Counted from the first letter of the stretch, positions 339-28,829 are shown. The stretch is DNA of 57,418 nucleotides from Candidatus Woesebacteria bacterium RIFCSPHIGHO2_01_FULL_38_10 (GCA_001792215.1 MGGC01000040.1:3653-61070); one strand, 5' to 3'. Notes: generated by a model from the letters alone, not told the origin. A program made the numbers and translations.

Positions 339-2879
339 CTAGATAGAAAAACTACTCACAGCCTGTTTAAACTGATTACCTCTATCTTTATAATCTTTAA
401 ACATATCAAACGAAGAAGCGGCAGGTGAGAGAAGAATAATACCACCTTTAGAAGTATTTTTATAAGCAACTTTAATGATTTTTTTCATTGAACTAAAACC
501 TAAATCTATCAGCTTTCCCTTAAAATCTAATTTCATCAGACACTTTTTAAGAAGAGGCCCTATTTGTCCAATAAGCACAATTACCTTAACATTTTCCTTT
601 TCGGCTAAAAACTTACACATTTCCTCGTAACTCAGTTTCTTATCAAACCCGCCTAAAATCAATGTAATTGGTTTCTCGAATGACTCAACCGCGGCAATTG
701 TTGTTTGCGGGTTTGTTGAAAACGAATCATTATAGAAAGATGCATCGGCAATTCTGCCAACCAACTCGAGTCTGTGTTCCAATCCCTTAAAAGAAAACAC
801 AGTTTTTTTAATTGAATCAACATCTGCACCAGCTAGATATGAGGCACAAACAGAAGCACAAACATTTTCCCAGTTATGTTCTCCTCGTAACAATAAATCC
901 TTCGTACCGCCTATTTTACATCCCGCATTATCTATTTTTAAAATAATCTTCCCTTTTTCCACATAACATCCACTAACCCTCTTTTTCTTACTAAAGTAAT
1001 ACTCTTTCGCGCAAGATAGCCTTGAAAAACTTTTTGAACAAGAATAATCGTAGTTTAAAACCGCATAATCACATCTTTCTTGATAATTAACAATATTTTT
1101 CTTTGCGTCTATATACTCTTTTCTATCTTTGTGCCAGTCCATATGATCCTCAGTAATATTTAGAACTACAGCAATATGGGGGCTTTGTGTCATATCAATA
1201 AGCTGAAAAGAAGATAATTCTAAAACTACCCAACTTTCGGGTTTGAGTTTTGGCAACAATTTCAACATTGGCGCACCAATATTTCCTGCCAAGTGCACAT
1301 CCTTCTTAGCTTTTTTAAGAATTTGATAAATTAAAGTGGCCGTCGTCCCCTTGCCTTTTGTTCCTGTAACACCAATAATTTTGCTAGGACAAAGATCAAA
1401 AAATAATTTCACTGCCGAAGTTATTCCAACTCCTTTATTCTCAGCATCAATAATCTCCGGTAAATACCTGTAAACACCTGGAGAACGAACTATTGCATCG
1501 TACTCTATTAATCCGCGGACAATATAATTATCTCCGCATACAAACTCAACTTTCCTACTCTTAACACCAGTGAGATCAAGTTCATTTTTAGGCTTTTTAT
1601 CATAAACCGTGACATGAGCGCCCTTTTTTTGTAAAAAACCAACAGCATCTTTTCCCTCTAAGCCAAATCCCAATACTGCAACTTTTTTTCCTTTGTACTC
1701 GTGTTTTCTCATGAAGATTCCGGGGATAGGAAAAATTTTTTTACTATCTTTATAAACAGTTCTTATTTCGTATAATCTTTTTTTACGAAGCTCAATTTGA
1801 CGAGGATGTCTGAATTCTTTAATCTCTTTTTCTTCAAAGCCCAGTAAAAATACTTCCGGCACTAATTCTATGCCCAATTCTTTTTTGGCCTTCTTATAAA
1901 TTATCTTCATAACTGCAAGGTAGTCTTTTGCAGTTGCTTTACCTTCATTAACAATGAAATTGTGATGATCTTTTGAAATAGTAGCATCACCAATCTTAAA
2001 TCCTGTCATCTTTAAAAGATGTTCTATTACAAAACCAATACTTGTTGTTGGAATTCCAAGCTTTTCTTTCTGCCCTTGAGTTAAATTATGAAAAGCACAA
2101 CCAGGAGCATTTCTTGGTTGTAAACTTTTTCTCTTAGCCCATTCATTATGTATATATTTTGCTTTTTCAGCATCTCCTTTATAAAGCAGAAATGTTGCGT
2201 CAAGAATTATTTCTCCAGTCTCTTGAAAGCGACTTCTGTCATAATCTACCCCCAACTCTTCAATACTTAATGTGTGCGTTCCACCTTGTAAGTCAAGGAC
2301 AGTTACTGTATCTATAACTTCGCTTATAAAATGAGTACCGCCATGGATGTTATTAAAAATAGCTCCACCTATCTTTCCCGGAATCCCGGCATACCACTGT
2401 AATCCGGTTATCCCTCTTTCCAGCAAAAAATCCGTAGCGTTGGGGAGATTTACTCCGCCTTCCATTCTCACCCGAATACGAGGTTTATCACTTTCATCAT
2501 AATCTAAATCTTTAAATTCATATTTAAAAGTTCCGACCTTATCATCCGATTCCCAACGATAGACCGGCTTTTTAATCTTTTGAAAATTTGCTTCTACCTT
2601 TGGTTCACCGAAAATTTCAATTTTGTCTGAACTCTCAACTAAGACTAAGCCTCTAATTCCAGAATCCGATATCAAAACATTACTTCCATCTCCAAGAATG
2701 GTTACAGGTATGTCTAGCTGTCTTGCTTCAATAATGGCTTTTTTAAAATCGTTGACAGACTTGGCTTCATAAAAAATATCAGCCGGTCCGCCAATCTTTA
2801 AGAACGTGTGTCTAGTTAGAGATTTGTTTAATTTTGCTCTACTCCCAAGTTTCTCTTTTAATTTCTTAATGTTACTCAT
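339..2879 (-). CDS. murB/murD: Fusion protein: UDP-N-acetylenolpyruvoylglucosamine reductase (MurB, N-terminal ~385 aa) + UDP-N-acetylmuramoyl-L-alanine:D-glutamate ligase (MurD, C-terminal ~450 aa)
   Basis: 846-aa ORF. The N-terminus has MurB FAD-binding motifs (FLKIGGPADIF, ILGDGSNVLISD, GIPGKIGGAIFNN). From ~aa 395 it has the MurD Rossmann fold (KKVAVLGFGLEGKD) and the Mur ligase P-loop GVTGTKGKGTT. The MurB part carries a ~45-aa insert (EPKVEANFQ...DESDKPR) relative to S. aureus MurB as recalled. Confidence 0.85.
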   Translation of the reverse strand: MSNIKKLKEKLGSRAKLNKSLTRHTFLKIGGPADIFYEAKSVNDFKKAIIEARQLDIPVTILGDGSNVLISDSGIRGLVLVESSDKIEIFGEPKVEANFQKIKKPVYRWESDDKVGTFKYEFKDLDYDESDKPRIRVRMEGGVNLPNATDFLLERGITGLQWYAGIPGKIGGAIFNNIHGGTHFISEVIDTVTVLDLQGGTHTLSIEELGVDYDRSRFQETGEIILDATFLLYKGDAEKAKYIHNEWAKRKSLQPRNAPGCAFHNLTQGQKEKLGIPTTSIGFVIEHLLKMTGFKIGDATISKDHHNFIVNEGKATAKDYLAVMKIIYKKAKKELGIELVPEVFLLGFEEKEIKEFRHPRQIELRKKRLYEIRTVYKDSKKIFPIPGIFMRKHEYKGKKVAVLGFGLEGKDAVGFLQKKGAHVTVYDKKPKNELDLTGVKSRKVEFVCGDNYIVRGLIEYDAIVRSPGVYRYLPEIIDAENKGVGITSAVKLFFDLCPSKIIGVTGTKGKGTTATLIYQILKKAKKDVHLAGNIGAPMLKLLPKLKPESWVVLELSSFQLIDMTQSPHIAVVLNITEDHMDWHKDRKEYIDAKKNIVNYQERCDYAVLNYDYSCSKSFSRLSCAKEYYFSKKKRVSGCYVEKGKIILKIDNAGCKIGGTKDLLLRGEHNWENVCASVCASYLAGADVDSIKKTVFSFKGLEHRLELVGRIADASFYNDSFSTNPQTTIAAVESFEKPITLILGGFDKKLSYEEMCKFLAEKENVKVIVLIGQIGPLLKKCLMKLDFKGKLIDLGFSSMKKIIKVAYKNTSKGGIILLSPAASSFDMFKDYKDRGNQFKQAVSSFSI

Positions 2880-4321: not shown

Positions 4322-6607
4322 TTAAATGACTGTCTGGGTAAGAATTCTCCTCATTTTCTTGTCAGCGTAGGCCAACTGCTCAGGTGTATTAACTCCCATC
4401 CATTGATCCTGATCTTTAAGATTAAAAACACACACTTTTTTCCCCTGACCAACTGCAATTTTCACTAAGTCAACAATATAATATTCCCCGCTTGCACTTT
4501 TTTCTATCCTACTAACATTTCCTTTAAGCCAGGAAATATCGAAAACATAAAGGCCGCAATTTACCTCTTTAATCTTTTTTTCTTCTTTTTTAGCTTCTTT
4601 TTCCTCAACAATTCTTAAAAATTTATAAGATCTGTCTCTCACAACCCTGCCCAAACCAGTTGGATCAGAAATTTTAAGGCTTGTAAAAGTAACAGTGGAT
4701 TTTTCTTTTTTATGTAGCTCAATAATCCTAGATAAAGTCTCAGGTCTGTAGAAAGCACTATCATCACCATTAAGAACTACTAAAGATTGTCTATTGGTAG
4801 GAATAACTTTTAATGCTTTTGCTAATGCGTCACCTGTACCCAAAGACCTTGGCTGGAATACATAATCGCATCCATTCCCGAAATAATCTTTAACAGTATC
4901 TTTTTGAAATCCGACAACTATTATAATTCTTCCAAATCCTGTCCGACGAAGCGTTGAAAGAGTATAGGATAACATCGGTTTACCGGCAATTTCATTTATT
5001 ACCTTTTGTCGATCTGATTTCATTCTTATACCTCGACCAGCAGCCAGAACGACAGCGGTCAAATTTTTATCCAAATTCATTGTTTCTATAGCTTGATGAT
5101 CCGACCAAGGATGCTCGACAGAATCGTAAGCCATACTTCTCTCATGCCCCTTTCCACATATAACAATCGTGTCGCCTTTTTGAGCAATTTTATTAATCAC
5201 AAACGCTATTGCTTCCCCACGTTCAGGTATTCTAACAAAGACATGTTTTTTACCCCTTCGATGATTCGAACCATCGTAGTCTTTGAACATAATTTCTTTT
5301 GCTTTTGTTTTTTTTGCTCCTTTAACTATTTCAGATATAATTCTACTAACATCCTCATGCCGCGGATCTTCGCTGGTAAAGATAGAAATATCTGCAATAC
5401 GGGATGAAATCTCTCCCATCAGTGGTCTTTTAGCAACATCGCGTTCTCCAGCACAACCGAAAATTGCGATAAGCTTTCCTTTTTTGCTCTGGAAATCCAG
5501 CCTTCTTCTCAAAAGCGTGAGAACTTTCTCTAATGAATTGGGAGTGTGGGCAAAATCAACAAAAACTTCCAAACCGGCTTTACTCTTAACTCTTTCAAGT
5601 CTACCGGGTAGTGCTTTAAAAGTTTTTATTGCCTTCTGAATACTCTCAATAGAAATACCGTAACCAAGCGCTGCTGCCATTGACGCTAAAATGTTTGAGA
5701 CGTTGTAATCGCCTAAAAGTTTTGTTTTTATCTGAAAAGTTTTATCCCAAAGACAAACATCAAAACTCATCCCACCCTCTGAAAACTTAATGTTTCTTGC
5801 CAGTATATCTACGCCTTTACCTTCCGCCAATCCGTAGGAGGTAATTTTTGAATTGGCGTTCATTCCTTGGGAGATACTTAAAAAACAGTTGTCATCGGCA
5901 TTAAGGACTGCGTAGTTAACACTTTCAAAAAGTTTTGATTTTGCTTTTTGGTAACTTTCGAAAGTTTTGTGGTAATCAAGGTGTTCGTGAGTAATATTTG
6001 TCAAAACCCCTGTATCAAAATTAACTCCCGTAACTCTTTCCTGATCCAGTCCGTGAGAAGTCACCTCGACAACTGCATATTCGCACATCTGTCTAACCAT
6101 TTCAGAAAAAATTCTCTGAAGAACTAAAGGTTCCGGATTGGTTACGTGTAAACCGGTGTTAAATTTCTTTTTTCCAATTTTTGCTCCAATTGTGCTTATT
6201 AAACCAACTTTTTTACCCGCTTGCAAAAGTAGATGATCGATAAGACTGGCTGTGGTAGTCTTCCCATCCGTACCGGTAACTCCTATTATTTTTAACTTTG
6301 AAGAAGGGTGATCATACCAAGCTGAAGCAAGATAGGATAGAGCTTTTCTAGAATTATCAACACGAACATAAGTCACTCTCTTTAACCACTCAGTTTTGGG
6401 TTTGAGCATTCCTACAATTGCCACCACACCTCCCTTTATAGCCTGATCTACAAACTCATGACCATTATAATTCGCCCCTTTAACAGCCACGAAAAGATAT
6501 CCCTTTTTAACTTTTCGAGAATCATCAACAATTGAACGAATACTGATTTTCTGGGATCCATAAACCTGGAAACTTCTAAGAGATTTAAGAAGATATGATA
6601 ATCTCAT
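4322..6607 (-). CDS. murE: Fusion protein: MurE-type UDP-MurNAc-tripeptide synthetase (N-terminal ~520 aa) + GlmU-N-terminal-like sugar-1-phosphate nucleotidyltransferase domain (C-terminal ~245 aa)
   Basis: The ORF track gives 4322..6649. The ATG at 6607 (MRLSYLLKSL...) removes the overlap with murA. MurE motifs: GVTGTDGKTTT and DNSRKAL. The C-terminal domain reads AVVLAAGRGIRMKSDRQKV...LGTGDA...GEYYIVD, as in the GlmU uridyltransferase domain, with no hexapeptide acetyltransferase part. Confidence 0.85.
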   Translation of the reverse strand: MRLSYLLKSLRSFQVYGSQKISIRSIVDDSRKVKKGYLFVAVKGANYNGHEFVDQAIKGGVVAIVGMLKPKTEWLKRVTYVRVDNSRKALSYLASAWYDHPSSKLKIIGVTGTDGKTTTASLIDHLLLQAGKKVGLISTIGAKIGKKKFNTGLHVTNPEPLVLQRIFSEMVRQMCEYAVVEVTSHGLDQERVTGVNFDTGVLTNITHEHLDYHKTFESYQKAKSKLFESVNYAVLNADDNCFLSISQGMNANSKITSYGLAEGKGVDILARNIKFSEGGMSFDVCLWDKTFQIKTKLLGDYNVSNILASMAAALGYGISIESIQKAIKTFKALPGRLERVKSKAGLEVFVDFAHTPNSLEKVLTLLRRRLDFQSKKGKLIAIFGCAGERDVAKRPLMGEISSRIADISIFTSEDPRHEDVSRIISEIVKGAKKTKAKEIMFKDYDGSNHRRGKKHVFVRIPERGEAIAFVINKIAQKGDTIVICGKGHERSMAYDSVEHPWSDHQAIETMNLDKNLTAVVLAAGRGIRMKSDRQKVINEIAGKPMLSYTLSTLRRTGFGRIIIVVGFQKDTVKDYFGNGCDYVFQPRSLGTGDALAKALKVIPTNRQSLVVLNGDDSAFYRPETLSRIIELHKKEKSTVTFTSLKISDPTGLGRVVRDRSYKFLRIVEEKEAKKEEKKIKEVNCGLYVFDISWLKGNVSRIEKSASGEYYIVDLVKIAVGQGKKVCVFNLKDQDQWMGVNTPEQLAYADKKMRRILTQTVI

Positions 6608-6620
6608 AAAGATAGAAGTA

Positions 6621-7919
6621 TTATTCGACTTCCTCGATTTCAGCTCCAAGCATCTTTAGGTTTTCGGAAAAATGGGGGTGCCCCCGATACAGAGCATCCG
6701 CATTAAGAATTAATGATTCTCCTTCGGCAATCATCACAGCCATTACCATTGCAACTACTGCTCGGATTATGTACGGTGCCTCTAAAGTTGCACTAGTGAG
6801 TTTTTGCCCCGCAATTACAATTATTCTGTGAGGGTCGCACATTACGATATTTGCTCCCAGCTTGTTAAGCTCGCTTGTCCAAAAAAGTCCAGCTTCGTAC
6901 ATCCAATTGTGAAACAACGCTTGGCCTTTTTTAGCCGAAAGGGCAATTGGGATAAAAATCGGTAAAAGGTCAACAGGCAGCGCCGGCCATGGTTGTGCTT
7001 TTATTGTTAGAATGCGCCTGCCTTCCTCTTCAGATTTAATTTGAATCTTTTGATTTGCCTCAAGAATGGCTGTCTCGCCTTTATAATAAATATTAATATT
7101 AAATTTTGAAAAAATTTCGTTTATCTGATGAAAAAGAAAGGGTAACGCATGATGAACTTTTATTCTCCCGCCTGTTACCGCAGCCATCGCCAGAAAAGTT
7201 GCGATTTCGTAGTGATCACTAAAAAGACTGTGGTCAACCCCGGAAAATTCTCCTACACCCTCTATCTCCAAAACGTTTGATCCAATCCCTTGTATTTTTA
7301 CACCAGCAGAACTTAAAAAATTACAAAGGTCTTGAACCTGTGGCTCAGAGGCAGCCCCGACTATCCTGGTTTTACCTTTGAGATTAGAAGCAAGCATAAG
7401 AGCGTTTCCTGTCGCAGTTGGACTCATTTCAGAAAGCCAAAATTCGCTTCCGTTTGCCTTTGTCGCATCCATTTTTACTCCATGAGAGGTTTCTTGAATT
7501 TTTACTCCCAAGTGCCTAAAAGCATCGTAATGGGGAAATAGCGTTCTAAAACCTAAAGTACATCCTCCGGGTAATTCATCAAAATTCACCTTTCTAAATC
7601 TGGCAAGCATTGGTCCCCAAAGAAGCGATGTTCCGCGCATATTGCCAAGATCATCCTTACTTATGTTATTAAAAGATAGTTCAGAATTATCAATCTTCAT
7701 CTCTTTCTCCTTTCTATTCCACTCAATTTTACTTCCCAGCTTCTTCATTATCGTAAGAAGTCTTTCAACATCTGAAACCTCAGGTACATTTCTTAAAATC
7801 ACTTCTTGATTAAACATTAGCGATGCTGGAAGAAGAAAGACAATGGAATTTTTGCTACCGGAAGGATATACTTCTCCAGAAAGTTTTTGTTTTCCTTTTA
7901 CGCGGATATTCACAGGCAA
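6621..7919 (-). CDS. murA: UDP-N-acetylglucosamine 1-carboxyvinyltransferase
   Basis: MurA-like from ...VNIRVKGKQKLSGEVYPSGSKNS onward. The ORF-track N-terminal extension to 8213 overlaps ftsI and is not MurA-like. The probable start is TTG at 7919 (or ATT/ATA at 7922/7928), just after the ftsI stop (TAG, 7932..7930). Confidence 0.85.
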   Translation of the reverse strand: MPVNIRVKGKQKLSGEVYPSGSKNSIVFLLPASLMFNQEVILRNVPEVSDVERLLTIMKKLGSKIEWNRKEKEMKIDNSELSFNNISKDDLGNMRGTSLLWGPMLARFRKVNFDELPGGCTLGFRTLFPHYDAFRHLGVKIQETSHGVKMDATKANGSEFWLSEMSPTATGNALMLASNLKGKTRIVGAASEPQVQDLCNFLSSAGVKIQGIGSNVLEIEGVGEFSGVDHSLFSDHYEIATFLAMAAVTGGRIKVHHALPFLFHQINEIFSKFNINIYYKGETAILEANQKIQIKSEEEGRRILTIKAQPWPALPVDLLPIFIPIALSAKKGQALFHNWMYEAGLFWTSELNKLGANIVMCDPHRIIVIAGQKLTSATLEAPYIIRAVVAMVMAVMIAEGESLILNADALYRGHPHFSENLKMLGAEIEEVE

Positions 7920-7929
7920 AATAAGTATA

Positions 7930-9642
7930 CTATTTTTCAGGCTGAATTCCAAAATATAAAAACAAATCCCTGGCAATAGCGTACCACAAAGGCGCCGCTG
8001 TTTCTGAGGCCCACTGAGAGCTTTCAGGCTCTTGTAAACTAACCAGCATAATAAATTTTGGATCGTCATAGGGAGCAAACCCAATAAATGAGGCAATTGT
8101 TTTTTCCTCATCGTAATGACCTGAAATCGGAATCTGAGCAGTACCGGTTTTACCGGCAATCTTAAAACCTGCCTGATGTGTCCACTTCGATTCTCCTTTT
8201 TTGGCTGCTTCAACCATCATGGCAGTTACCTGAGCTGCTGTTCCTTCAGAAATTACTCTTTGCTCATGTTTCTGATTAACATCTTCTTTCCAATTCTCTC
8301 CAATAAGTTGATCAACAACGTTGGGTTTGACTAAAATACCTTTATTAGCTATCGCGCTGACGGCTCGGACCATTTGAAGCGGGGTCGTTGCAATGCCTTG
8401 ACCAAACGCAGCTGTTGCCAAATCCACATCGCTCCAACTACTCTTTTCTCTTAACTTAGGAGCAATCTCTCCCTGAAGATCAATCTCAGTTTTATCTTCA
8501 AATCCAAATAATTTAAGGTAATCGTATAACTTTTCCTTTCCCAGCTTATTGGCAACAAATACCATCCCCACATTGTCTGAATTTATAATGACATCCTGCA
8601 TATTTGAATCTTTATTGTATTTCCTGTTCCATGTCTCAATTAAATATTTATCGACTTTATAAGGACCGCCACATATTTCACACTTTGTTTCTGGTGTAAC
8701 TACACCGTTATCTAACGCGGATGCCATGACAACCACTTTAAAAATTGATCCAGGTTCAAAGGATGAGGAAATCGCCGGATTAATGAAAAACTCATCTCCG
8801 TACTCCCAATAGGAAGACTGATCGTATGCCGGGTACGAACCCATTGCTAAAACCCTACCATCCTGAGGATTCATAACTATAGCAGTCCCCGACTTGGCCC
8901 CATATTTTTCAACCCCTTCTTTTAATTTTTTTTCCAAAGTTATCTGTATTGCTTTGTCTAAATGAGTTAATAAACTTATTCCCTGGATGGCTGAGACCTT
9001 TTTACTATCTTCAATAAAAATTGGGGAGCCTCGCGCGTCGGCTTCTCGAGACAAAAAACCAGGCCTTCCACTCAAGGATAAATCATAATAGCCTTCAAGT
9101 CCAAAATAACCCAGGTCTTCTCCTTGAGCGTTCTTGCCCACAAATCCTAATATATGTGCCGCAACTGACCCTTCGGGATAATCCCTGATCTCTTCTGGCT
9201 CAAAACCTATACCCTTTATTCCTAAAGCCTCAATTTGTATTTTGACTTCATCATTTACTCTGTGTTTAAGAGGAACCCAAACACTATTCTCTCGAGAAAG
9301 AAGTTCTTTTAATCTATCAGCCTCGGACAATACAGCTTTTTCCCCATCTTTTTCTTGGACAAAAAGGAAGCTCAGCTGGTCAGCAATTTTATTATGATCA
9401 TCATCAATCTTATCCAAAGACGCATAAACTAACCACCCCTGAGAACTTGCAGCAAGCCAGGTTCCATCTGAGGCTAAAATTTCACCTCTGAACGCGTCAA
9501 TTGAATGGCTGGATTCATATTGACTTCTTGCTTGAATGGATAACTCTTTACCCTTATAAATTTGCCAATAAAACAGTCTAACTACAAGCACAAGGAAGGC
9601 TATAAAGAATGCAAAAGAATAAAGTTTTAGACGGATAGACAT
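7930..9642 (-). CDS. ftsI: Penicillin-binding protein 2/3-type transpeptidase (FtsI-like)
   Basis: 570 aa. N-terminal TM anchor, PBP dimerisation region, transpeptidase motifs SIFK (SxxK) and KTGTA. Confidence 0.85.
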   Translation of the reverse strand: MSIRLKLYSFAFFIAFLVLVVRLFYWQIYKGKELSIQARSQYESSHSIDAFRGEILASDGTWLAASSQGWLVYASLDKIDDDHNKIADQLSFLFVQEKDGEKAVLSEADRLKELLSRENSVWVPLKHRVNDEVKIQIEALGIKGIGFEPEEIRDYPEGSVAAHILGFVGKNAQGEDLGYFGLEGYYDLSLSGRPGFLSREADARGSPIFIEDSKKVSAIQGISLLTHLDKAIQITLEKKLKEGVEKYGAKSGTAIVMNPQDGRVLAMGSYPAYDQSSYWEYGDEFFINPAISSSFEPGSIFKVVVMASALDNGVVTPETKCEICGGPYKVDKYLIETWNRKYNKDSNMQDVIINSDNVGMVFVANKLGKEKLYDYLKLFGFEDKTEIDLQGEIAPKLREKSSWSDVDLATAAFGQGIATTPLQMVRAVSAIANKGILVKPNVVDQLIGENWKEDVNQKHEQRVISEGTAAQVTAMMVEAAKKGESKWTHQAGFKIAGKTGTAQIPISGHYDEEKTIASFIGFAPYDDPKFIMLVSLQEPESSQWASETAAPLWYAIARDLFLYFGIQPEK

Positions 9643-9649
9643 TTAAACA

Positions 9650-9967
9650 TTATGGTTTTCCTGCAAATGAATCTCCTGGAGTCAAATAAATCACTTTTTC
9701 TAATCTTTCAAAACCCAAATCTTTCGCTTTAGCTTCTACTTCTGCCAGTGATGTTTTCTGAACCAACTCTCTTGAAAGTTTTTTATTTTCACTTGACAAC
9801 CTCTCCTCCTCCTTTTCATACAAAGAAAGGGTTGTCCCTAAGGTTACAGCTTTTATTGTCAAAACTAGCTCAAAAATGATAAACAAACCCAAAAATAGGA
9901 TGCTTATATTTTTTTTGTCTAGGATCTTTTTCTTTTGAGAAATTACCTTTTTACGTCTGTCTCTCAT
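9650..9967 (-). CDS. ftsL: FtsL-like cell-division protein (single TM + coiled coil)
   Basis: 105 aa. TM segment ISILFLGLFIIFELVLTIKAV followed by a heptad-like charged region. Sits at the canonical position between rsmH and ftsI. ATGA overlap with rsmH. Confidence 0.5.
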   Translation of the reverse strand: MRDRRKKVISQKKKILDKKNISILFLGLFIIFELVLTIKAVTLGTTLSLYEKEEERLSSENKKLSRELVQKTSLAEVEAKAKDLGFERLEKVIYLTPGDSFAGKP

Positions 9968-11040
9968 ATTTTTTCCAAAACGCGCATTTTAGCGCTTCTT
10001 GATCTGGGGTTTCTGAACATTTCCTCAGTTGAGGCTAATATTGGTTTTCTGGTAATAATTTTCCCTCCACTTTCTTTAAAAAATTCTTTAACGATTCTAT
10101 CCTCCCCTGAGTGAAAACTAATCACGATAAGGCAACCCCCTTTCCTCAAAACCTTTAAGGCTTTGGGCAAAGCTTCTTTCAAATTTTCAAGTTCACTATT
10201 TACCACAATCCTCAATGCAAGCATGGAAAGTGTAACTGGATGTAATTTTTCTCCCTTCTTGCTTGCGAAAAGTTCCAAAAAATCTGAAACTACCTTAAAT
10301 TTCTTTACCTTTCTTTTCTCAGCAACCATTCGCGCAAGATTCCTTGCTTTACCTTCAGGCAAAACGATCTTAAAAAGTTGAAACAACTTTTTCTGATCTA
10401 GGCTGTTAAGCAAATCGGATGCCCTAATCTTTTGAGTTTTCTTATCCATCCTCATATCAAGCTCATCTTTAGTATTTTTGAATGAAAAACCTCTTGACTC
10501 GGAGGCCAGTTGATGACTGGAAACTCCAAGATCAAAAAGAATTCCGTAAACTTCTCTAAAACCATACTTTTCCAAAATACTATCCAGGTCTTTAAAATTA
10601 CCATGAATAGCCACAAAGCGCAGCCTTGCAAAAAGCGGATAAATCTTATTCGTTCGAGAATGCCTCGCGGCAAGACGCGAGGATGAATGAGCGAACGAAC
10701 TTGCCGAAGGATACTTCGTAGCAGAGCTACGAACCAGTTCATCGTCTGAATCGTTTAAGGTAAGCTCTGGTAAAGACCGAGATACTTTCCTTAACCTCTC
10801 TTCAGCAATCCTCAAAGAATCGCAATCTGTCTCTATTCCTAAAACAAAACCACCTTCTTGGATAATCTTCTCGCTATGCCCACCCAATCCCAAGGTGGCA
10901 TCAATAATCAGGGGGTGTACTTTTAAATGTGCAAATTTCTTTAGCTTAAGCGCTTCAACTACTTCACGAACCATAACAGGATCATGAAGATTTTGACTTC
11001 TCAGTCTGTTTTCCATTTTGATTCTTTTTCTCTTCTTCAA
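9964..11040 (-). CDS. rsmH: 16S rRNA (cytosine1402-N4)-methyltransferase RsmH with a ~50-aa internal insertion
   Basis: Motifs HDPVMVREV, IIDATLGLGGHS, ILFDLGVSSHQL, SFHSGEDRIVK. The track start is TTG at 11040; the ATG at 11016 (MENRLRS) is more likely. Confidence 0.85.
   Translation of the reverse strand: MKKRKRIKMENRLRSQNLHDPVMVREVVEALKLKKFAHLKVHPLIIDATLGLGGHSEKIIQEGGFVLGIETDCDSLRIAEERLRKVSRSLPELTLNDSDDELVRSSATKYPSASSFAHSSSRLAARHSRTNKIYPLFARLRFVAIHGNFKDLDSILEKYGFREVYGILFDLGVSSHQLASESRGFSFKNTKDELDMRMDKKTQKIRASDLLNSLDQKKLFQLFKIVLPEGKARNLARMVAEKRKVKKFKVVSDFLELFASKKGEKLHPVTLSMLALRIVVNSELENLKEALPKALKVLRKGGCLIVISFHSGEDRIVKEFFKESGGKIITRKPILASTEEMFRNPRSRSAKMRVLEKI
10649..10733. repeat. GC-rich nested/double hairpin inside the rsmH reading frame
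   Basis: TTCGTTCG (10649..10656) pairs with CGAACGAA (10692..10699) and encloses CCTCGCG (10663..10669)/CGCGAGG (10676..10682). A second hairpin is TTCGTAGC (10715..10722)/GCTACGAA (10726..10733). Confidence 0.6.
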
Positions 11041-11110: not shown

Positions 11111-11557
11111 CTAATCACCCACCTTCTTTTTCCCAACTGCAATTCTTTCAAGCGCCTCATAAGCTTTTTCTTCAATGGCTTTTTCTAAAGTATCCCATTC
11201 AGTGCTATCCCAAATTTCTACTCTATCTCCTAAACCTACAAAGATAACTTCTGACTTTATGCTCGCATAATTAAGCAATACCTTGGGTATAATAAATCTG
11301 CCCTGCCTGTCCAGTTTTATTTCAAACCCTTGGCCAAAAATAAACCTGTCCAGATCTCTAACCGGCGATATGATTAAGTAAGATGGTCCAGTAAGCCTCT
11401 TTACCAAATTTTGCCAAGCATCTTTTGAAACCAGAACCAAACATTTTTCGTACCATCTTGCAACAATCAACTCATCTCCCAATTCCCGTCTTAACTTTTT
11501 TGGTACAGACACTCTATCTTTATCTGTTAATTTGCTCAAATACTGTCCGATAAGCAC
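11111..11557 (-). CDS. mraZ: Transcriptional regulator MraZ
   Basis: 148 aa. Two SpoVT/AbrB-like halves (DKDRVSVPKKLRREL and LDRQGRFIIPKVLL). First gene of the dcw operon. Confidence 0.9.
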   Translation of the reverse strand: MLIGQYLSKLTDKDRVSVPKKLRRELGDELIVARWYEKCLVLVSKDAWQNLVKRLTGPSYLIISPVRDLDRFIFGQGFEIKLDRQGRFIIPKVLLNYASIKSEVIFVGLGDRVEIWDSTEWDTLEKAIEEKAYEALERIAVGKKKVGD

Positions 11558-28187: not shown

Positions 28188-28829
28188 TTATTGGAAAAGA
28201 CGGGATCTTCCCAGTCTATAATTGAGATTTTTAATTACTCTTCTTTTTATAATATTAGCAGGAACACCACCAACAACAGCATAATTGGGTACATCTTTAG
28301 TGAGAACTGCTCCAGCAGCCACAACCGCTCCTTTGCCTATTTTGACTCCTGGTAGGATTATAACCCTTGGCCCAATGAATACATAATCTCCAATCTCAAC
28401 AGGAGCATTTTTTGTTTTAAATTCTTCACTCTCAATATCGTGTTCCGAATTATAAATCAGAACCGAAGACGCAAGATCAACATGATTTCCAATCGAAAGC
28501 GGCGCCCTTCCGTCTAAAAAGGCATTATCCCCAATTTTTGTATCATCACCTATCGTTACTCCTCTCGGTTCAAAAAATTTACATCCCATATGTATTGTTG
28601 AACCTTTCCCAATTTTCACCCCTGCCAGCTTGAATACTAAGTGCCTGATAGATGCCAATGGTACGTGAATGCTTACTTGATGAATTAAAAAAAGCTCTAA
28701 ATCGAACCGCCAATTATAAAACCTGCTCAATGCCTTACTTAAGGCTTTAGAAAAGCTTAAAATGTTGCCGTGTTTATCAGTAAAGATAATTCCTTTCTTA
28801 CCAATCTTTATGTTTTCTTGGTACAACAT
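28188..28829 (-). CDS. Hexapeptide-repeat (left-handed beta-helix) sugar O-acetyltransferase
   Basis: 213 aa. Repeated [LIV]G-x4 hexapeptides (IGKGSTIHMG, IGDDTKIGDNAF, IGDYVFIGPRVIILPGVKIGKGAVVAAGAV). Confidence 0.8.
   Translation of the reverse strand: MLYQENIKIGKKGIIFTDKHGNILSFSKALSKALSRFYNWRFDLELFLIHQVSIHVPLASIRHLVFKLAGVKIGKGSTIHMGCKFFEPRGVTIGDDTKIGDNAFLDGRAPLSIGNHVDLASSVLIYNSEHDIESEEFKTKNAPVEIGDYVFIGPRVIILPGVKIGKGAVVAAGAVLTKDVPNYAVVGGVPANIIKRRVIKNLNYRLGRSRLFQ

Follow-up and report, generated by a model that had tools for sequence, protein, structure and literature searches.

A MurE ligase fused to the uridyltransferase domain of GlmU in a Candidatus Woesebacteria genome

The fused gene and its surroundings

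The window that we analyzed is a stretch of 57,418 nucleotides from Candidatus Woesebacteria bacterium RIFCSPHIGHO2_01_FULL_38_10 (GCA_001792215.1, MGGC01000040.1:3653-61070), whose genome assembly (G000) has 1.02 Mb in 41 contigs and is 93% complete. Among the peptidoglycan genes on its (-) strand is one that encodes a MurE ligase followed by the N-terminal domain of GlmU, which we will call murE::glmU-N. A single open frame of 775 codons, beginning with TTG, covers 4322-6649 (-). The likely start is an ATG at 6607, 14 codons inside the TTG frame, which is where the gene callers of seven independent assemblies begin the protein; this gives a product of 761 amino acids (aa). The ATG lies 13 bases past the stop of murA, and the frame ends at 4322, 5 bases ahead of murC. 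The gene is divided as follows:

4322..6607 (-): murE::glmU-N fusion gene, 761 aa; the open frame reaches the TTG at 6649
5099..6607 (-): MurE part, of the meso-diaminopimelate (meso-DAP) ligase type, from NF001126, the P-loop GVTGTDGKT, the EDPR motif, and structure superposition
5057..5098 (-): junction or linker, HQAIETMNLDKNLT, from the alignment of fusion proteins and from overlapping murE and glmU-N genes in relatives
4325..5056 (-): N-terminal domain of GlmU, the N-acetylglucosamine-1-phosphate (GlcNAc-1-P) uridyltransferase domain, from GlmU profiles, alignment, and model

Family models recognize both parts. Pfam places the N, M, and C domains of Mur_ligase at residues 39-501 and NTP_transferase at residues 532-765. 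The MurE part (residues 15-524) scores 491.6 bits with NF001126 (cut-off 373) and 488 bits with TIGR01085 (cut-off 257), and with all three Mur ligase domains covered it qualifies as a MurE equivalog. The models of GlmU align to residues ~527-772 only, at profile positions 2-243 of 452, and about 12 residues separate the complete MurE from this domain. NF010934 gives 216-220 bits and TIGR01173 gives 200-204 bits, which is below the TIGR01173 cut-off of 366.85: the uridyltransferase domain of the bifunctional protein is there with its catalytic residues, while the left-handed beta-helix (LbH) half is not and the whole-protein cut-off is not reached. No Pfam domain or profile for the hexapeptide repeats of this acetyltransferase half matches after GlmU-N. 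Instead, the open reading frame (ORF) ends there, and the C-terminus of the protein is the helix that in GlmU leads into the beta-helix. A first-pass annotation of the window had described a single ORF with a complete MurE, a junction near 5060, and a GlmU-type domain that lacks the beta-helix. This description holds up, with the junction placed at ~5057-5098, and the GlmU motifs that it quoted fall on known catalytic positions.

It had also raised the concern that the C-terminal domain might be another kind of nucleotide-sugar pyrophosphorylase, which the scores do not bear out: GlmU models give 200-220 bits, far above Arch_glmU (117), AglF (82), RmlA (53-68), and MurU (46). The archaeal GlmU model (TIGR03992, cut-off 292) matches the N part only, at 117 bits, and the MurU model (NF045761, cut-off 250) reaches 46.5 bits.

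Both active sites are intact. In an alignment of 117 fusion proteins (GlmU residues are given in the numbering of Streptococcus pneumoniae, mapped via 1hm0), R15, K22, Q72, G77, T78, D102, G139, N169, and E195 of GlmU-N are invariant (117/117), E154 is kept in 113 of the 117, and Y197 and N227 are kept in 112 each. The P-loop of MurE (GVTGTDGKT, or more generally GxTGTxGKT) and the EDPR motif are conserved in 116-117 of the 117; we take the arginine of such DNPR-type motifs to mark specificity for meso-DAP. Three positions of GlmU-N depart from canonical GlmU, namely 12 (K to R), 14 (T to I), and 199 (T to V). Changing N169 to Ser cripples the GlmU of Staphylococcus aureus (bioRxiv 10.64898/2026.06.23.733835).

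The GlmU-N domain aligns to GlmUs of solved structure end-to-end over their N domain only (E = 9e-43 to 1e-29, 34-36% identity). An AlphaFold model of all 761 residues, built from 58 homologues, has a mean pLDDT (predicted local distance difference test) of 91.4 and a pTM (predicted template modeling score) of 0.88. Using Foldseek, the first 510 residues superpose on S. aureus MurE (4c13) with a template modeling (TM) score of 0.89 and a root-mean-square deviation (rmsd) of 2.7 A, and the last 244 residues superpose on S. pneumoniae GlmU with UDP-GlcNAc and Mg2+ (1g97) with an rmsd of 1.3 A over 244 columns, which also argues against another pyrophosphorylase. Such a high pTM for a chain of two enzymes suggests that MurE and GlmU-N would have a defined mutual orientation. 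Pompeo et al. reportedly found in 2001 that isolated N-terminal fragments of Escherichia coli GlmU retain uridyltransferase activity. From its sequence, the fused domain is predicted to be a GlcNAc-1-P uridyltransferase that makes UDP-GlcNAc from UTP and GlcNAc-1-P. MurA and MurB, which are encoded beside the fusion, need UDP-GlcNAc.

We do not think that the join is an error. The identical 761-aa protein, with the same flanking genes, is found on 14 contigs from at least seven independent assemblies, which represent varied samples and assemblers (one from NCBI, GCA_001793025.1, MGHD01000022.1; three from ENA; one JGI metagenome; and two from Logan). A search of 5.8 billion proteins returned more than 100 clusters, 44-57% identical, in which the same Pfam domains are combined. 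These are from Candidatus Woesebacteria, Patescibacteria, and similar, and they are named simply "MurE" in the source records. (Searching GTDB genomes with patterns derived from MurE returned mostly plain MurE from Chloroflexota, along with the names Woesebacteria, Daviesbacteria, Gottesmanbacteria, and Levyibacteriota.) The length of the linker is kept across the 117 fusion proteins, and the architecture recurs in several genomes of the class, including single-contig ones. The gene is thus a natural Mur chimera: a Mur ligase and a second enzyme of the peptidoglycan pathway share one uninterrupted ORF, which is conserved in several genomes. The alternative is that an assembly or sequencing error removed a stop codon or introduced a frameshift between two genes. 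In its favor, the class more commonly has murE and glmU-N as separate genes that overlap. But because the identical in-frame protein comes from independent assemblies, made with different assemblers, and because more than 100 diverged clusters share the architecture, the artifact that the first-pass annotation had worried about is effectively excluded; the constant linker also speaks against it, and we give it almost no credence.

In two of the assemblies with the identical protein, NCBI MGHD01000022.1 (L027 2966-5987) and one from ENA (L032 4695-5987), murA is in pieces, with a 93-aa C-terminal piece, and in the NCBI assembly ftsI is fragmented as well (223 aa). Since both genes are called whole in other assemblies of the same sequence, the stretch upstream of the fusion gene seems to have local sequence errors or to vary between strains.

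The fusion gene is part of a dcw (division and cell wall) cluster. The order on the (-) strand is mraZ, rsmH, a small ftsL-like ORF, ftsI, murA, murE::glmU-N, murC, and murB::murD, so that murA, whose product is the first consumer of UDP-GlcNAc, is directly upstream of the fusion gene and murC is directly downstream:

11111-11557 (-): mraZ, from Pfam and the dcw cluster
9964-11040 (-): rsmH/mraW, from Pfam and the dcw cluster
9650-9967 (-): small ftsL-like ORF, from the dcw cluster
7930-9642 (-): ftsI, a penicillin-binding protein (PBP), from Pfam and the dcw cluster
6621..7913 (-): murA, UDP-GlcNAc 1-carboxyvinyltransferase, NF006873 345 bits (cut-off 297), called as 430 aa
2916..4316 (-): murC, TIGR01082 378.6 bits (cut-off 335)
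339..2879 (-): murB::murD fusion, 846 aa, MurD TIGR01087 370 bits, MurB NF010480 209 bits (below the cut-off of 259)

The murB::murD fusion also joins nonconsecutive steps. It is intact on independent contigs too, and its type is missing from a published list of Mur chimeras (PMC10214165). The operon runs past the left edge of the window (C40:812-3303 of G000), with genes for an alpha/beta-hydrolase (237 aa) and a 599-aa MurF-like ligase. This ligase has Mur_ligase_M and C domains and an N-terminal extension of ~170 residues that looks membrane-spanning. Because it is encoded just beyond the edge of the window, murF is not absent from the cluster. Elsewhere in the genome (C41:35343-36743), there is a second MurA/EPSP-synthase-like paralogue of 466 aa, and its homologues are found inside the dcw cluster of several relatives.

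States of glmU-N in the class and the origin of the fusion

A search with the GlmU model (TIGR01173, E <= 1e-25) found a bacterial-type GlmU-N in 37 of 151 genomes from the class, and we dissected these loci. Several states were found. Some genomes (G028, G032, G058, G118, G133, G025, G055, and G001) have a separate murE (406-446 aa) that overlaps the start of glmU-N (245-272 aa), and murC follows. The MurE::GlmU-N fusion is present in the window's own family f1 (G000, G038, and G136) and in family f18 (G018, G050, G074, and G095), and there are ORFs of the size of the fusion in three more f1 genomes (G154, G156, and G157). All seven of the sampled genomes from family f29 have a GlmU-N::MurC fusion, of 661-695 aa except in G029, where the ORF is cut by the end of a contig; the loci are L042, L044, and L046-L050. 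Last, G105 (L041) has a 469-aa fusion of GlmU-N to a HAD-like domain. The first-pass annotation had suggested a survey of related genomes for its MurE fusion, and the architecture turns up in both f1 and f18 besides the protein clusters described above. In a maximum-likelihood tree of the GlmU-N domain, the MurC fusions form one clade (support 100/99), and the MurE fusions of f18 form a clade (100/100) apart from those of f1, so there were at least two origins of the MurE fusion.

The two halves of the fusion were neighboring genes. An ATG within the linker, at 5069-5071 (HQAIET-M-NLDKNLT), sits at the expected start of a separate glmU-N. In the ancestral state, a glmU-N encoding the uridyltransferase only would have lain between murE and murC, with its start overlapping the stop of murE and its translation coupled to that of its neighbors. 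The loss of a stop codon would then weld glmU-N to a neighbor, and this would have happened repeatedly, with either murE or murC. As murE and glmU-N adjoin and overlap in relatives, a merger of translationally coupled neighbors through stop-codon loss appears to be the simplest history.

Other genes are associated with glmU-N in some relatives. HAD-like genes are 3' of glmU-N, or fused to it, in G020, G032, G148, and G105. In G020 (L058 940-3753), the run is glmU-N, a HAD-like ORF, CofD/YvcK (GlmR-like), and glmS, which is a compact node for the supply and regulation of UDP-GlcNAc. In G028 (L016 5283-6005), a Cu-oxidase_4 gene (YfiH/PgeF-type) lies between glmU-N and murC.

Hexosamine supply in this genome and in its relatives

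The first-pass annotation reasoned that the acetyltransferase activity of GlmU must be either split off or missing. In relatives it can be a separate gene, and in G000 it is missing. Searching G000 with the GlmU model finds no family member besides the fusion. A six-frame search of G000 with a profile of seven stand-alone acetyltransferase halves (GlmU-C) from the class gave best scores of 43 and 31 bits, as compared to 195-316 bits for the members, and a class-wide search with a nine-sequence GlmU-C profile again found none in G000. The gap is wider than was supposed, as GlmS is not found in G000 either (the best match, at 41 bits, is on an unrelated amidotransferase), and thus the entire supply of hexosamine is affected. 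The sole phosphohexomutase of G000 is of the phosphoglucomutase/phosphomannomutase (PGM/PMM) type, with 385 bits for PgmG, 315 for Arch_GlmM, and 154 for GlmM, all below the cut-offs. Its other nucleotidyltransferases are RmlA-long, a glucose-1-phosphate cytidylyltransferase, a GalU-like protein, and an unassigned 272-aa enzyme beside a flavoprotein, and the one LbH protein that stands free is an O-acetyltransferase of the WcaF type. G000 also has one APH-like kinase and a single ROK kinase, which scores equally weakly as NagK and as a glucokinase. In short, the canonical upstream enzymes are absent from the assembly, and the fused domain is the only recognizable route to UDP-GlcNAc in this 93%-complete genome. 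The same holds for GlmS and GlmU-C in the sampled fusion genomes of f1, as none of the three (G000, G038, and G136) has either one. More broadly, G121 alone among the 8 sampled f1 genomes has GlmS, and three of the 7 that lack it are single-contig assemblies that are 99-100% complete.

We considered several candidates for the missing functions and rejected them. A 388-aa protein on contig C26, the only nucleotidyltransferase-plus-LbH protein in G000, is not an archaeal-type GlmU: it scores 353 bits as RmlA-long (TIGR01208, cut-off 320), is encoded beside an RmlB-like gene, covers positions 1-326 of 393 of Arch_glmU, and has 31 bits on the GlmU-C profile. (The RmlB-like ORF after it, at L006 417-2232, is open for only 198 aa, so this dTDP-glucose dehydratase may be frameshifted or truncated.) The LbH protein at 28188-28829 of the window is WcaF-type, lies in a polysaccharide region, and scores 43 bits with the GlmU-C profile. 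On C6, the APH-family kinase has weak similarity to APH(9) and ThiK, and we found no support for it being an anomeric kinase of the AmgK/NahK type. A substitute enzyme of the UAP/NagU type (the UDPGP family) is absent from G000 and is found in just 2 of the 151 class genomes. Co-occurrence within f1 gives no support to the idea that the fusion and the ROK kinase are conserved partners.

Across the class, GlmS is found in 74 of 151 genomes. (For the acetyltransferase half, we counted with a lineage-specific GlmU-C profile, as TIGR01173 at E <= 1e-25 under-counts the LbH halves of the archaeal type.) About 43 of the 151 genomes encode an archaeal-type bifunctional GlmU of 400-470 aa, which often adjoins glmS. 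The type was shown for G105, where a full archaeal-type GlmU (419 aa) lies between murE and the GlmU-N::HAD-like gene. A stand-alone LbH GlmU-C gene (207-259 aa) is present in 11 genomes. It is often directly 3' of glmU-N (G001, G004, G040, G056, G065, and G103), and in G028 and G133 it is divergent and upstream of mraZ. Of the 37 genomes with GlmU-N, 24 have GlmS and 12 have any GlmU-C-like LbH, and the latter include none of the genomes with MurE fusions. Because GlmS is present while the LbH half is rare, it appears that many relatives make glucosamine-6-phosphate (GlcN-6-P) without a recognizable glucosamine-phosphate acetyltransferase.

Some relatives have genes similar to ATP-citrate lyase (ACL-like) nearby. 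The module comprises an ATP-grasp plus citrate-binding protein, a CoA-ligase, and a citryl-CoA-lyase-like protein. ACL-like genes are 3' of GlmU-C in G001 (L026 6736-10309, inside the dcw cluster) and in G059 (L024 1836-5437), and a Citrate_bind gene adjoins GlmU-C in G028 (L016 11766-12738) and G133 (L020 2-948). Citrate_bind genes are found in 13 of the 37 GlmU-N genomes versus 8 of the 114 others. The placement of these genes by GlmU-C suggests a dedicated supply of acetyl-CoA for the acetylation of hexosamine. Of the six f29 genomes other than G059, the five that were examined (G082, G149, G134, G119, and G102, at L146-L150) all have a conserved GNAT of ~142 aa, with 48-64% identity between genomes, that is divergent beside the ACL-like module; it may stand in for the GlcN-phosphate N-acetyltransferase. 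We found no orthologues of the ACL-like genes, the f29 GNAT, or the GlmU-N-linked HAD-like genes in G000. We also considered whether the loss of acetyl-CoA supply explains the loss of GlmU-C, which is only partly tenable: ACL-like genes lie beside GlmU-C in the four genomes above, but in 6 of the 7 f29 genomes the ACL module is present and GlmU-C is not, and acetyltransferases are still encoded in G000.

What the fusion might do and why it matters

The C-terminal 245 residues of the fusion are like those of bifunctional GlmU (TIGR01173; E. coli, S. pneumoniae 1g97/1hm0, and Mycobacterium tuberculosis 3spt), with all of the catalytic and GlcNAc-binding residues of the uridyltransferase. Unlike bifunctional GlmU, the fusion has no LbH and so has neither the GlcN-1-P acetyltransferase nor the trimerization module; its GlmU-N sits on the C-terminus of MurE and scores 200 bits against a cut-off of 367. 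The natural Mur chimeras that have been surveyed are MurE-MurF, MurC-Ddl, MurC-MurB, MurG-MurC, MurD-FtsW, and MraY-MurG, and several chimeras join nonconsecutive steps (PMC10214165). As in those proteins, a Mur ligase shares one ORF with a dcw-adjacent enzyme of the same pathway, and the steps need not be consecutive. Unlike in them, the ligase is joined to a nucleotide-sugar pyrophosphorylase, which lies outside the Mur set and is not among the listed types, and in sister lineages the same module is on MurC or on a HAD-like domain instead. The survey left out unidentified species, and it mentions neither GlmU nor Patescibacteria. It favored stoichiometry, stability, and complex assembly over channeling as explanations (PMC10214165), and by analogy these arguments would apply to MurE::GlmU-N too. 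A free-standing GlmU that is N-terminal only has been noted in bacteria with NagU, where some other acetyltransferase is implied, the same puzzle that the relatives above present; neither fusions nor Patescibacteria are mentioned (bioRxiv 10.64898/2026.06.23.733835). Our protein is similarly a uridyltransferase without the acetyltransferase domain, but NagU/UDPGP is absent from G000 and the domain is fused to MurE. Finally, MurU of the AmgK/MurU route has the same fold and is a small stand-alone sugar-1-phosphate uridylyltransferase that feeds peptidoglycan synthesis from salvaged sugar. The C-terminal domain is much closer to GlmU (46 bits for MurU, cut-off 250), and we did not find a convincing AmgK in G000. 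Full-text literature searches found no paper on a MurE-GlmU fusion. MurE::GlmU-N is a new type of partner among natural Mur chimeras, and it is already in the public databases under the annotation of MurE.

We think it probable that this one polypeptide comprises two independent and intact predicted enzymes, a meso-DAP-type MurE and a GlmU uridyltransferase, and that the latter is fed by salvaged GlcNAc. Scavenged GlcNAc is the most likely source of GlcNAc-1-P, and because there is no recognizable synthesis of GlcN-6-P or acetyl transfer in G000, salvage is the most economical reading. A possible route would lead from the single ROK sugar kinase to the single PGM/PMM-family mutase and then to the fused uridyltransferase; this feeding route is the weakest link. 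As to why the genes are fused, the benefit would be fixed 1:1 co-expression, stability, and perhaps docking in an assembly of Mur enzymes. The first-pass annotation stressed that UDP-GlcNAc formation is physically coupled to a late cytoplasmic step. The coupling is an architectural fact, but substrate channeling between the halves is unlikely because four steps (MurA, MurB, MurC, and MurD) separate the two reactions.

Several observations weigh against salvage, or against a simple merger of two genes. The 41 contigs of G000 make up a genome that is 93% complete, and the unassembled remainder could hold glmS or an acetyltransferase. The other three f1 genomes that have a ROK kinase lack GlmU-N, and the other sampled fusion genomes lack a ROK kinase. 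G000 has transferases of the acetyl-CoA type (the WcaF-like LbH at 28188-28829 and a GNAT on C33), and it could encode a nonorthologous N-acetyltransferase. Given that GlmS is found in 24 of the 37 GlmU-N genomes, many of which lack the LbH half, salvage is not a general explanation for the truncated GlmU. Also, the high pTM of the model hints at a fixed interface between MurE and GlmU-N, which would be more than the neutral merging of genes.

Along these lines, the de novo pathway might be complete, with parts that were unrecognized or unassembled: a nonorthologous N-acetyltransferase, such as a small GNAT that acts on GlcN-6-P as in eukaryotes, and a source of GlcN-6-P would feed the uridyltransferase, and the fusion would then be silent on salvage. 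We consider this unlikely for G000. Most of the 24 GlmU-N genomes with GlmS lack the LbH GlmU-C, and another acetyltransferase must exist there; the f29 GNAT is at the position of the LbH half in G059, a GNAT lies within the dcw cluster of G032, and the GNAT on C33 shows that G000 has a protein of this type in what is just a 93%-complete assembly. On the other hand, G000 has no GlmS and no homologue of the ACL-like genes (Citrate_bind is absent), its best score on the f29 GNAT profile is 35 bits versus 247-260 for the members, and its best match to the GlmU-N-linked HAD-like protein is just 14.5 bits. The lack of GlmS in 7 of 8 f1 genomes, including the three nearly complete ones, also argues against it. 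Still more improbable is that the domain activates a different sugar-1-phosphate, either MurNAc-alpha-1-P (MurNAc is N-acetylmuramic acid), as MurU does, or GlcN-1-P, for the salvage of sugars from muropeptides. One APH-family kinase in G000 belongs to the family of AmgK, the HAD-like proteins of G020, G032, G148, and G105 bring to mind MupP of the MurU route, which is a HAD phosphatase, and the departures at positions 12, 14, and 199 would also fit a change of substrate. But the scores favor GlmU over MurU by a wide gap, all of the known GlcNAc-contacting residues of GlmU are kept (including N169 and E154), MurA and MurB from the same operon require UDP-GlcNAc, no alternative candidate for a UDP-GlcNAc pyrophosphorylase was found in G000, and the similarity of the APH-like kinase is weak and limited to APH(9) and ThiK.

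A broader account would be that this class of Patescibacteria dismantled the final steps of UDP-GlcNAc synthesis and rebuilt them around the mur operon. The uridyltransferase module of GlmU may have been welded repeatedly to a partner, which was MurE on at least two occasions and otherwise MurC or a HAD-like domain. Acetyl transfer may have become lineage-specific, with either a separate LbH gene and a dedicated ATP-citrate-lyase-like supply of acetyl-CoA or a small GNAT at that locus, and the latter variant may have the order of steps that is seen in eukaryotes. The f1 family may have no acetyl transfer at all, so that wall synthesis would depend on GlcNAc from a host. And the pTM of 0.88 may reflect a true interface of MurE and GlmU-N that ties the supply of precursor to the Mur assembly. 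As a whole, this account seems to us rather unlikely.

Returning to the fused, salvage-fed uridyltransferase that we prefer, the bacterial route to UDP-GlcNAc through GlmU is regarded as universal and essential, and the enzyme is a target for antibiotics; here is a lineage that retains the uridyltransferase half only and has made it part of the Mur enzymes. Because the public records say only MurE, metabolic reconstructions miss the UDP-GlcNAc step. The new chimera partner adds to the cases that are used in arguing for a cytoplasmic complex of Mur enzymes. To us, the main interest is that this lineage, and this organism above all, has no recognizable way to make GlcNAc-1-P. The organism is uncultured, ultra-small, and probably attached to a host (Patescibacteria; Microgenomates/Woesebacteria-like). 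With neither GlmS nor a recognizable GlcN-phosphate acetyltransferase, we predict that it depends on external GlcNAc, which should be useful in attempts to cultivate it.

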